IMG/VR virus record: IMGVR_UViG_3300022555_000009
Reading direction: 5' to 3' (one strand)
Length of the DNA stretch: 64,000 nt
DNA from: a virus
The notes beneath the pieces were generated by a model. The model did no database searches, was not told where the DNA came from, and saw only the letters and a list, made by a program, of their open reading frames with translations. The stretch's first letter is position 1. Each line of letters begins with the position of its first letter. Shown here one piece after another: positions 37,348 to 38,884 of the stretch. The position numbers were made by a program, and so were the translations under genes.

Positions 37348-37399
37348 TTTTTCATCGCAAGAAAACCTCGAAATCTTTAGTTTCGAGGATGAATTGCGA

Positions 37400-37572
37400 T
37401 CATCCCTGAGATTCAATATACTTTCTAATGGTTTCATCAGAAGCCTCTCCTATTGAACACGCAAAGAATCCATCTGACCAAAAGGTTCTCTCATTCCAGA
37501 ACTGCTTTTTCAAATAACCTTCATGGTCTTCCCAAAGTCGAGGTGAACTTTTAGAGAAGTCTTATGGCTCAT
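37400..37572 (-). pseudogene. tnpA: IS200 Y1 transposase remnant with internal deletion
   Basis: MSHKTSLKVHL joined out of frame to RLWEDHEGYLKKQFWNERTFWSDGFFACSIGEASDETIRKYIESQG*; HUH motif missing. Confidence 0.85.
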
Positions 37573-37593
37573 ACAACACCTATAACCTTTCTA

Positions 37594-37610
37594 AATTAGT
37601 GCTACTAATT
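37594..37610. promoter_or_regulatory. Back-to-back ACTAATT motifs facing tnpA and tnpB
   Basis: AATTAGT-GCT-ACTAATT. Confidence 0.55.
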
Positions 37611-37614
37611 AAAT

Positions 37615-38862
37615 ATGAGCGGAACGATACATAGAGCATTGAAAATAAGACTCTATCCCAATAGAATACAAGAGACTCAAATACTGAAGACGCTCGGTTC
37701 TTGTCGTTTCCTCTATAATCAAATGCTCGCTGAGAGGATCAAAACCTATGATGAATGGAAAGCCTCTGGCGAAGATGTAAGAAAACTCTATGAATATCAA
37801 TATAAGACAGAAAAGCAATATAAGCAAGAATTTGAATGGCTTTCTGAACCCGATTCAATCAGCCTCCAACAATCTCGAATCGATCTCTCAATGGCTTATC
37901 AGAACTTCTTCAAATCTCAATCGGGTAAAAGAAAAGGAAAATCAGGATTTCCAAAGTTCCATAAACGAGGTCAAAAAGACTCATATCGAACTCTCAATCT
38001 TGGAACCAACATAGCAATCAACTACGACACTCGAAAAGTGAGACTACCTAAACTTGGTTGGATTACTTTTCGTGACCTTCGCTGTAATACACAAGGAGCA
38101 ATCAAACAAGCTACTGTAAGTCGTAGCAAAACAGGAAAATACTTTGTATCTATTCTATTTGAGCAAGAACTCGAATTAGAAGGAGTTGAAATCAATCAGG
38201 ATCTGAAAACCAAGGGTCTTGATATGAGCTTAGCGAACTTCTATGTAGATGATGAAGGAAATTCTCCTGCATACGAACGTATCTACCGCAAAAATGAACC
38301 ACGGTTGAAGTGGTTGCAAAAACAAGTCAGTAAGAAGCAGAAAGGTTCAAACAACCGAAAGAAAGCTCAATTAAGGGTGAACCAAGTATTTGAGAGAATT
38401 ACGAATTCCAGGAAGGATTTCTCTCAGAAACTATCTACAAAACTCATTCAAGAAAATGATGTAATTGTAGTTGAAACTCTTAATTTAAGAGCAATGGCTC
38501 AGTGTTTGAAACTTGGCAAATCGATCAACGACCTTGGTTATGGTGAATTCCTAAGACAGCTTCAATACAAGAGCCTTTGGAATAATAAGACCTTGATTGA
38601 AGCCGATAAATGGTTTGCCTCTTCTAAAACCTGTTCAAGATGCGGATACGTTCACAAACAACTACAGCTGGATGATCGAATTTTCAATTGTCCGAGCTGT
38701 GGCTTCGAGATTGATCGAGACCAGAATGCAGGAATCAATCTCAAAAATTATGGTCTAAAAGAATTAGGGCTGGGACAGCCCGAAATTAAGTCTGTGGAGA
38801 CATCGATGCACAAGGTCGAGTCTGTGAAGCAGGAAGCCCTGAAATCTTTAGTTTCAGGGTAG
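37615..38862 (+). CDS. tnpB: RNA-guided endonuclease TnpB, catalytic triad intact
   Basis: KIRLYPN, GFPKFH, GLDM (RuvC-I), VVETL (RuvC-II), CSRC/CPSC zinc finger, DRDQNAGINL (RuvC-III). Confidence 0.95.
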   Translation: MSGTIHRALKIRLYPNRIQETQILKTLGSCRFLYNQMLAERIKTYDEWKASGEDVRKLYEYQYKTEKQYKQEFEWLSEPDSISLQQSRIDLSMAYQNFFKSQSGKRKGKSGFPKFHKRGQKDSYRTLNLGTNIAINYDTRKVRLPKLGWITFRDLRCNTQGAIKQATVSRSKTGKYFVSILFEQELELEGVEINQDLKTKGLDMSLANFYVDDEGNSPAYERIYRKNEPRLKWLQKQVSKKQKGSNNRKKAQLRVNQVFERITNSRKDFSQKLSTKLIQENDVIVVETLNLRAMAQCLKLGKSINDLGYGEFLRQLQYKSLWNNKTLIEADKWFASSKTCSRCGYVHKQLQLDDRIFNCPSCGFEIDRDQNAGINLKNYGLKELGLGQPEIKSVETSMHKVESVKQEALKSLVSG

Positions 38863-38884
38863 TTCACTTAACAGATCCCTGTCA
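38740..38884 (+). ncRNA. Predicted TnpB omega/reRNA scaffold plus guide (5' boundary approximate)
   Basis: GGGCTG-GGA-CAGCCC hairpin, right-end hairpin, TTCAC end; guide from flank TTAACAGATCCCTGTC. Confidence 0.65.

Follow-up and report, generated by a model that had tools for sequence, protein, structure and literature searches.

The 64,000-nucleotide window analysed here, the IMG/VR virus record IMGVR_UViG_3300022555_000009, belongs to the large genome (41% G+C) of an uncultured phage and carries an insertion sequence (IS) of the IS200/IS605 family at positions 37347-38867. This 1521-bp element is of the IS605 type, with divergent tnpA and tnpB genes. It is probably a non-autonomous insertion in which TnpB and its omegaRNA serve either to retain the element or to bring about its TnpA-independent homing among genomes of the same phage, the parts of this reading being taken jointly. 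All defining features of the IS200/IS605 family except an intact TnpA, and all those features of a TnpB-omegaRNA system that can be read from sequence, are present, the omegaRNA itself being predicted.

Transposase remnant and conserved TnpB

The closest full relative of the element is found on a 75-kb IMG/VR contig (L001; TnpB 88% identical), where TnpA is encoded intact on the opposite strand (124 amino acids (aa); Pfam Y1_Tnp positions 3-121 of 121, with HIH and RRYIESQG). Compared with this reference, the window copy has a 10-bp insertion near the tnpA start and has lost 205 bp including HIH, with a shift of frame. The junction of this internal deletion lies at 37538-37539 on the minus strand (alignment columns 381-585), and translations place the loss at residues ~11-78, which include the HUH motif. 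What is left of tnpA on the minus strand is an N-terminal stub (37510-37572) that reads MSHKTSLKVHL before the frameshift and has 20 codons plus a stop, and a C-terminal remnant (37400-37537; 45 aa plus a stop) that keeps the catalytic-Tyr region RKYIESQG, is out of frame with the start and matches Y1_Tnp at positions 86-121 of 121 only. Since the HUH motif is deleted and only this part of the domain remains, no Y1 HUH transposase is encoded and the window copy is a non-autonomous derivative, in agreement with an earlier reading of the sequence alone (the sequence-only reading), which had described tnpA as deprived of its HUH core. The nearest relative in the TnpB tree, on a 56.6-kb JGI contig (L160; 91% identical), carries at 4743-6145 an element with a different and larger tnpA deletion and retains sequence that is absent from the window copy; thus, the two losses of tnpA are independent.

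The tnpB gene (37615-38862, plus strand) encodes a protein of 415 aa with the Pfam domains HTH_OrfB_IS605, OrfB_IS605, and Cas12f1-like_TNB. It aligns from end to end with ISDra2 TnpB (8H1J, E=1e-66), with the RuvC residues D203, E288, and D369 opposite D191, E278, and D361 of ISDra2 and the CxxC pairs of the zinc finger at 340 and 359, so that the catalytic D-E-D set and the zinc finger noticed in the sequence-only reading are confirmed. The ratio of nonsynonymous to synonymous substitutions (dN/dS) of tnpB against its relatives is 0.06-0.10, including the comparison with L160 and its independent tnpA deletion, and tnpB is under purifying selection.

The scaffold region of the predicted omegaRNA (38738-38867, plus strand, the 5′ limit being approximate) overlaps the 3′ end of tnpB and the right end, and makes up the last ~130 nt of the element. 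RNAalifold analysis of 18 relatives revealed compensatory changes in 7 of the 21 base pairs of its three stems, and the window copy of the scaffold has a folding energy of -41.9 kcal/mol (z -2.2). Rfam contains no omegaRNA family matching the scaffold. By the position rule of the family, a 16-nt guide and target, TTAACAGATCCCTGTC, is predicted in the flank (38868-38883, plus strand), its first three bases being the convergent gene's stop codon. This string is unique within the window at up to three mismatches.

It might be supposed that the element is a passive hitchhiker, a decaying non-autonomous IS that persists at a harmless intergenic position and now and then moves with the help of TnpA in trans, its TnpB remaining silent or idle during infection. 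Decay of tnpA is indeed recurrent (in the window, in L160, and in copies with tnpB only), and an insertion past a terminator is neutral to its neighbours. Moreover, the tnpB-only copies occupy at least six different sites, which need TnpA in trans and not homing, so that trans-mobilisation has to be counted as a second route. Such an idle passenger is nevertheless difficult to reconcile with a full-length tnpB that has all its catalytic residues and a dN/dS below 0.1, with omegaRNA stems that covary, or with the state of L160, which retains the tnpB-side copy of the ACTAATT motif discussed below even though the tnpA-side copy has degenerated to AATTGGT. This explanation therefore seems unlikely.

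Ends, target site and the predicted empty allele

The element was delimited by family comparison. A metagenome scan with the common hairpin CCNNGAAATCTTNAGTTTCNNGG returned more than 118 loci, among which ~52 left and 47 right arms are distinct. In the left ends of the family, a flank finishing in TTTAT is followed by a linker of 17-21 nt (e.g., ACTTTCATCGCAAGAAAA), the hairpin, and ATGAAT. The window has the same arrangement: TTTAT at 37342-37346 (plus strand) is the TnpA target and the predicted target-adjacent motif (TAM) of TnpB, and its last four bases, TTAT (37343-37346), form the left cleavage site 19 nt 5′ of the hairpin, an assignment that agrees with the empty alleles of relatives. 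The left end (37347-37400, plus strand), defined also by alignment with L001, comprises the 19-nt linker with the guide AAAA (37362-37365), the hairpin (37366-37388), the ATGAAT box, and an outer stem CGCAA/TTGCG, and folds at -18 kcal/mol (z -5.6). On the same strand, the right end comprises the guide GAAG (38833-38836), a hairpin (38837-38859), and the transposon-encoded end TAGTTCAC (38860-38867). Both hairpins are intact, agree with the family consensus and have the common loop GAAATCTTTAGTTTC, and their stems covary across the family; imperfect palindromes are thus subterminal at both ends, without terminal inverted repeats, as is characteristic of IS200/IS605 elements. The view that both ends are intact, already expressed from the sequence alone, is well founded.

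The tetranucleotide at the foot of each hairpin changes together with the cleavage site. The guide AAAA goes with TTAT in 39 of 41 left ends, TTAT being located 17-21 nt upstream of the hairpin, and AAAG with TTAC in 7 of 10; GAAG is associated with TCAC in all 27 right ends that have it, GAAA with TCAT (4/4), and CAAG with TGAC (2/2). As judged by this covariation, the IS608-type rule, according to which the hairpin-foot tetranucleotide specifies the cleavage site, holds for the family.

These data shift the left boundary from where it had been placed by the sequence-only reading, which took TTCAT (37351-37355) for both the boundary and the TAM. The left-end linker ...CTTTCATCGCAAGAAAA-hairpin, which includes this TTCAT, is conserved in many independent copies, and six copies with an identical linker have six different flanks, each ending in TTTAT; TTCAT is therefore inside the element. 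About 50 independent insertions, the covariation of guides with cleavage sites, and the allele pairs of relatives all speak for TTTAT. The related claim that the occupied allele, TTCAC, is one base away from the TAM falls as well, because the right end finishes in TTCAC, two positions off TTTAT.

Pairs of occupied and empty alleles are available among the relatives, and such presence/absence polymorphism of family members is seen in other phage-like contigs. At ~6866 of one contig (L088) the sequence is unbroken, ...GGAAGGCTTAT being joined directly to AAGAATATG..., and the near-identical contig L083 is occupied at 575-980 by a 406-bp element, the left flanks being identical at 134 of 138 positions. 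In another pair (L061 empty, L076 occupied) the flank is identical at 350 of 352 positions, and there are two further occupied/empty pairs. The empty alleles join TTAT exactly to the flank, without target duplication. For the window, the empty allele is accordingly predicted by family analogy as GTGGTTTTTTAT followed by TTAACAGATCCC (in a longer form, ...GATGTGGTTTTTTAT followed by TTAACAGATCCCTGTC, with the junction between ...TTTTTTAT and TTAACAG). The TAM is inferred to be TTTAT from the insertion target, and cleavage dependent on it is predicted.

The same observations bear on the idea that TnpB has been domesticated and serves the phage in a non-selfish way, e.g., as an RNA-guided regulator or in genome processing. 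There is a precedent in TldR proteins, phage-borne TnpB derivatives that regulate host genes (PMC10705468), and the element is fixed at one site in at least two samples, the same occupied locus having been assembled in two other samples, ENA ERZ1426681 and ERZ1426824. TldRs, however, are nuclease-dead TnpB-like repressors devoid of the RuvC residues and of transposon ends, whereas the window element retains an intact triad, both ends, and a guide in the position typical of the family. In addition, its guide matches only its own flank, and the insertion polymorphism of its relatives is typical of mobile elements, so that domestication appears highly improbable.

The 406-bp element of L083 encodes no protein. 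It is composed of a left end, two copies of ACTAATT, an omegaRNA-like scaffold, and a right end, and lacks tnpB; similar omegaRNA-only elements are found in L148 and L096. Such mini-elements could use TnpB (and TnpA) in trans. Even smaller elements of ~50-60 nt, present in seven contigs (L040, L062, L088, L100, L120, L131, and L135), consist of the left-end linker, one hairpin, and TAGTTCAC. They resemble palindrome-associated transposable elements (PATEs), and both cleavage sites are present in them.

The ACTAATT motif and apparent residence in phages

Between tnpA and tnpB lies a divergent promoter-like pair of motifs, AATTAGT-GCT-ACTAATT (37594-37610, on both strands), with the tnpB ATG 4 nt downstream. 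An equal spacing recurs at 60931 on the minus strand. Both the pair with its spacing and the placement of the motif in front of genes of this phage had been pointed out by the sequence-only reading, and both stand. Enrichment of ACTAATT in the window as a whole was rejected (17 copies observed vs 16.4 expected), but its position is non-random: 8 of the 17 copies are located no more than 45 nt upstream of gene starts, in front of 8 of the 55 genes (binomial P=4e-10). ACTAATT is the top 7-mer in the 45-nt upstream windows, where it has the right orientation and often stands just past terminators. A sigma-70 promoter scan of the window gave no more hits than in shuffled sequences, and a literature search for the motif string retrieved primers only. 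The same preference for gene starts is seen on contigs that carry related copies of the IS (14 of 27 occurrences in G003, P=3e-15; G001 and G002 are also enriched), and on the contig of L160 all five copies are upstream of genes. ACTAATT thus looks promoter-like, and it marks the starts of genes across a group of large, uncultured phages.

The pair was not acquired locally. AATTAGT-N3-ACTAATT with the 4-nt spacing is present also in L001, L096, and L130, all with an intact tnpA, and L160 retains it in the degenerate form mentioned above, while L006, L007, L014, L079, and the tnpB-only copies have a single ACTAATTAA-N2-ATG/GTG before tnpB. Because relatives with intact tnpA carry the pair and distant copies a single motif, the pair is, by sequence comparison, a divergent promoter-like region that belongs to the IS itself, inherited with it and not the product of local rewiring. 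The intergenic regions of IS605 elements are known to serve as the element's own promoters (10.64898/2026.09.24.754181).

This has consequences for the proposal, made in the sequence-only reading, that the IS was rewired to late promoters of the phage and, with TTCAT as its TAM, works mainly as a weapon by which rival relatives are cleaved when they infect the same cell. The motif pair and its spacing are real, ACTAATT does front phage genes, and for homing endonuclease genes of phages the killing of competitors has been described (PMC13565253). Yet the pair is inherited, TTCAT is a part of the conserved left end, and a ‘late’ class is not supported by PHROG or Pfam, which assigned no virion function to the motif-fronted genes of the window, most of them being without any family match. 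Furthermore, what the 16-nt guide matches is the 3′ terminus of an orphan gene, so that only near-identical genomes could be reached: the product of this gene, searched against IMG/VR, JGI metagenomes, and 5.8 billion proteins, recovered only itself, and broad exclusion of competitors is for this reason unlikely. As a whole, the rewired weapon is very unlikely.

The lineage itself looks phage-resident, because its members sit on phage-type contigs whose genes also use ACTAATT. Close relatives were found solely on viral contigs or on short contigs from metagenomes and metagenome-assembled genomes (MAGs), and next to family members there are genes for a head protease, for an RNA ligase of the T4 type, and for a homologue of a 709-aa protein of the window. 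Host chromosomal copies with the motif pair, which would have spoken against a phage adaptation, did not come to light: all motif-bearing copies that were found are on viral or phage-like contigs. One contig is assigned to a ‘Woesearchaeota’ MAG (L013), and its sequence upstream of tnpB equals that of a 160-kb IMG/VR phage contig (L004); L013 probably belongs to a phage and ended up in the MAG by mis-binning. Phage-borne tnpB genes have been documented (10.64898/2026.02.14.705889).

Other contigs of the family have AAGRTAA in front of tnpB. They show no enrichment of ACTAATT, and their top upstream words are AAGRTAA-like. Bulk counts of AAGRTAAT revealed no enrichment. In the viral contigs G004, G006, and G007 (L149-L159), the commonest upstream words are AAGATAA, AAGTTAA, and AAGGTAA, and the resident tnpB is fronted likewise. 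These words may serve a different group of phages or hosts as a signal for ribosome binding or as a promoter. The possibility that the signal before tnpB was switched many times to match resident phages was considered and rejected in favour of about one switch plus one loss, the latter in L077. There (4490-4540; TnpB ~83% identical), ACTTATTTTATATTATATAT precedes the ATG in place of ACTAATT, and, to go by this copy, the promoter-like segment before tnpB is evolutionarily plastic. In L160, the guide region runs directly into the ACTAATT of the next gene.

Proposed homing, neighbouring genes and related systems

The IS entered immediately 3′ of TTTAT, within the T-tail of the terminator behind the endolysin gene, and later lost the tnpA core by the 205-bp deletion. 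From there on, the following course of events is proposed. A transcript started from the ACTAATT element would yield TnpB and, through processing by TnpB, the omegaRNA, both presumably expressed together with the ACTAATT gene class of the phage; processing of its own mRNA into omegaRNA by TnpB has been described (PMC10278001). The TnpB-omegaRNA complex may cut the IS-less allele at the TAM TTTAT followed by TTAACAGATCCCTGTC, and the occupied allele would be spared because of the two mismatches of TTCAC to the TAM. Repair of the break by recombination with a genome that bears the IS would then bring the element back without any TnpA. In this way the element would be regained where it had been excised in trans, or would home, during co-infection, into genomes of this phage that lack it, whereas to reach new sites it would depend on TnpA provided in trans by an autonomous copy. 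It is established that TnpB cuts donor joints bearing the TAM and guide sequence and thereby promotes retention, and the IS200/IS605 family is known for elements that have lost tnpA, for copies with tnpB only, and for PATE-like minis (PMC10055086). TnpA-independent homing into plasmids has been reported, and homing into phages has been proposed in theory (PMC13565253); by analogy, homing into IS-less genomes is plausible here.

Several points weigh against this interpretation. An IS-less relative of the window phage was not found among GenBank phages, in IMG/VR, in JGI data, or by protein searches, and the junction is the one predicted from the family. In particular, a megablast search with the locus found nothing similar among GenBank phages, and the exact predicted empty-site strings of the window and L160 had no hit in IMG/VR, where the exact left-end pattern occurs only on the contig of L001; relatives found through the endolysin are 44-49% identical, too distant for a comparison of junctions. 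The AAGRTAA class forms a single clade in the TnpB tree, so that the match between the signal upstream of tnpB and the resident genome rests on about one switch, and AAGRTAA may be a ribosome-binding signal. Since ACTAATT is only 4 nt from the ATG, the transcript would be leaderless. Finally, ACTAATT could be a host signal and not specific to phages.

Beyond retention or homing of a non-autonomous element, a broader picture can be offered more tentatively, as a possibility that we hold to be somewhat improbable in its entirety: a phage-resident IS605/TnpB lineage that shares ACTAATT with its host phages, expresses TnpB and omegaRNA on the phage schedule as an RNA-guided homing endonuclease, spreads to IS-less co-infecting genomes by transposase-free (‘non-restorative’) homing, and has omegaRNA-only minis riding along.

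The site of the insertion spares the adjacent genes. Upstream lies an endolysin gene (N-acetylmuramoyl-L-alanine amidase; 36739-37311, plus strand; Pfam Amidase_2, E=3.6e-23), followed by a bidirectional intrinsic terminator (37311-37349) made of an A-run, a 17-bp stem, and a T-run, with folding energies of -19.7 kcal/mol on the plus strand and -14.9 kcal/mol on the minus strand (z -8.1 and -7.7, respectively). A simple terminator scan missed this A/T-flanked structure, which was revealed by folding. The TTTAT target is the end of its T-tail, and the element of L160 likewise sits at a terminator-TTTAT. Downstream is a convergent open reading frame (ORF) of 781 aa to which no function is assigned (38868-41213, minus strand) and for which Pfam and PHROG searches gave no match. 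Its stop codon is formed by the first three bases past the right end, so that both neighbours are left whole by the IS; the location between a bidirectional terminator and a convergent stop codon had been recognised correctly from the sequence. Owing to the insertion, the 781-aa gene has no direct access to the terminator. Read as their reverse complements on the minus strand, omegaRNA stem 1 (38767-38781) and the left-end hairpin (37366-37388) are each followed by a T-rich tail, and these structures could terminate read-through from the convergent gene. The contigs from ERZ1426681 and ERZ1426824 both break within the region of the tnpB 5′ part and the tnpA remnant, which may reflect variant or multi-copy sequence there.

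Two other proteins of the window deserve mention. An ORF of 566 aa (60929-62629, minus strand) has strong PHROG matches to homing/HNH endonucleases (phrog_3339, E=1.5e-106) and ends 3 nt ahead of a leaderless ACTAATT-fronted gene start. The 709-aa protein (48686-50815, minus strand) matches PHROG large terminase and DnaB-like P-loop families at residues 55-430 and UvsX/RecA-like recombinases at residues 432-603; its homologue adjoins the family TnpB in L079.

Among known systems, the element resembles the ISGst2-type IS605 of Geobacillus stearothermophilus with GstTnpB2 and its omegaRNA: the IS200/IS605 architecture is alike, a TTTAT TAM stands 5′ of the left end (TTTAT is the wild-type TAM of GstTnpB2; Meers et al. 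2023, PMC10055086), the transposon-encoded right-end motif is unlike the TAM, the omegaRNA is located at the 3′ end of tnpB and the right end, tnpB-only and PATE-like protein-less derivatives co-exist, and a role in retention or homing has been proposed. Unlike ISGst2, the window element is on a phage genome, has an internally deleted tnpA and a tnpB fronted by a 7-nt motif of phage genes, and is known from its sequence alone. With ISDra2 TnpB of Deinococcus radiodurans (PDB 8H1J, 8BF8, and 8EXA), it shares the full-length alignment, the domain order, the DED triad, and the zinc finger, but ISDra2 has the TAM TTGAT, an intact tnpA, and a location on a bacterial chromosome.

IS608 of Helicobacter pylori, whose end recognition by TnpA was reportedly characterised by Barabas et al. 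in 2008, has subterminal hairpins, a left cleavage site ~19 nt 5′ of the hairpin, and guide tetranucleotides at the hairpin foot. The window element has similar hairpins and a similar left distance, and the pairing rule has been recovered in its family by covariation. In contrast to the co-directional genes of IS608, those of the window element are divergent as in IS605; the target is TTAT instead of TTAC, and the right cleavage site follows the hairpin by 8 nt instead of 10 nt. The free-standing homing endonuclease genes of T4-like phages (seg, mob), which spread by intronless homing (reviewed in PMC13565253), are comparable in being selfish nuclease genes in an intergenic spot of a large phage with an apparent phage promoter-like motif of their own, which are expected to spread by cutting the gene-less allele in co-infection. 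In the window element, the target would be recognised by a guide RNA and a TAM and not by a protein, and self would be distinguished from non-self by the presence or absence of the insertion.

No new kind of system is revealed by this analysis, and the novelty is modest: an upstream motif of phage genes that is common to a phage-resident IS lineage. As ACTAATT at gene starts is shared by phages and the selfish elements resident in them, it is useful for annotating such phages. The element itself provides a well-delimited natural case for asking whether TnpB drives transposase-independent homing between co-infecting phage genomes: its two ends, its TAM, and its guide are defined, as is the empty allele predicted for it, and the family supplies occupied/empty pairs together with tnpB-only and omegaRNA-only copies.

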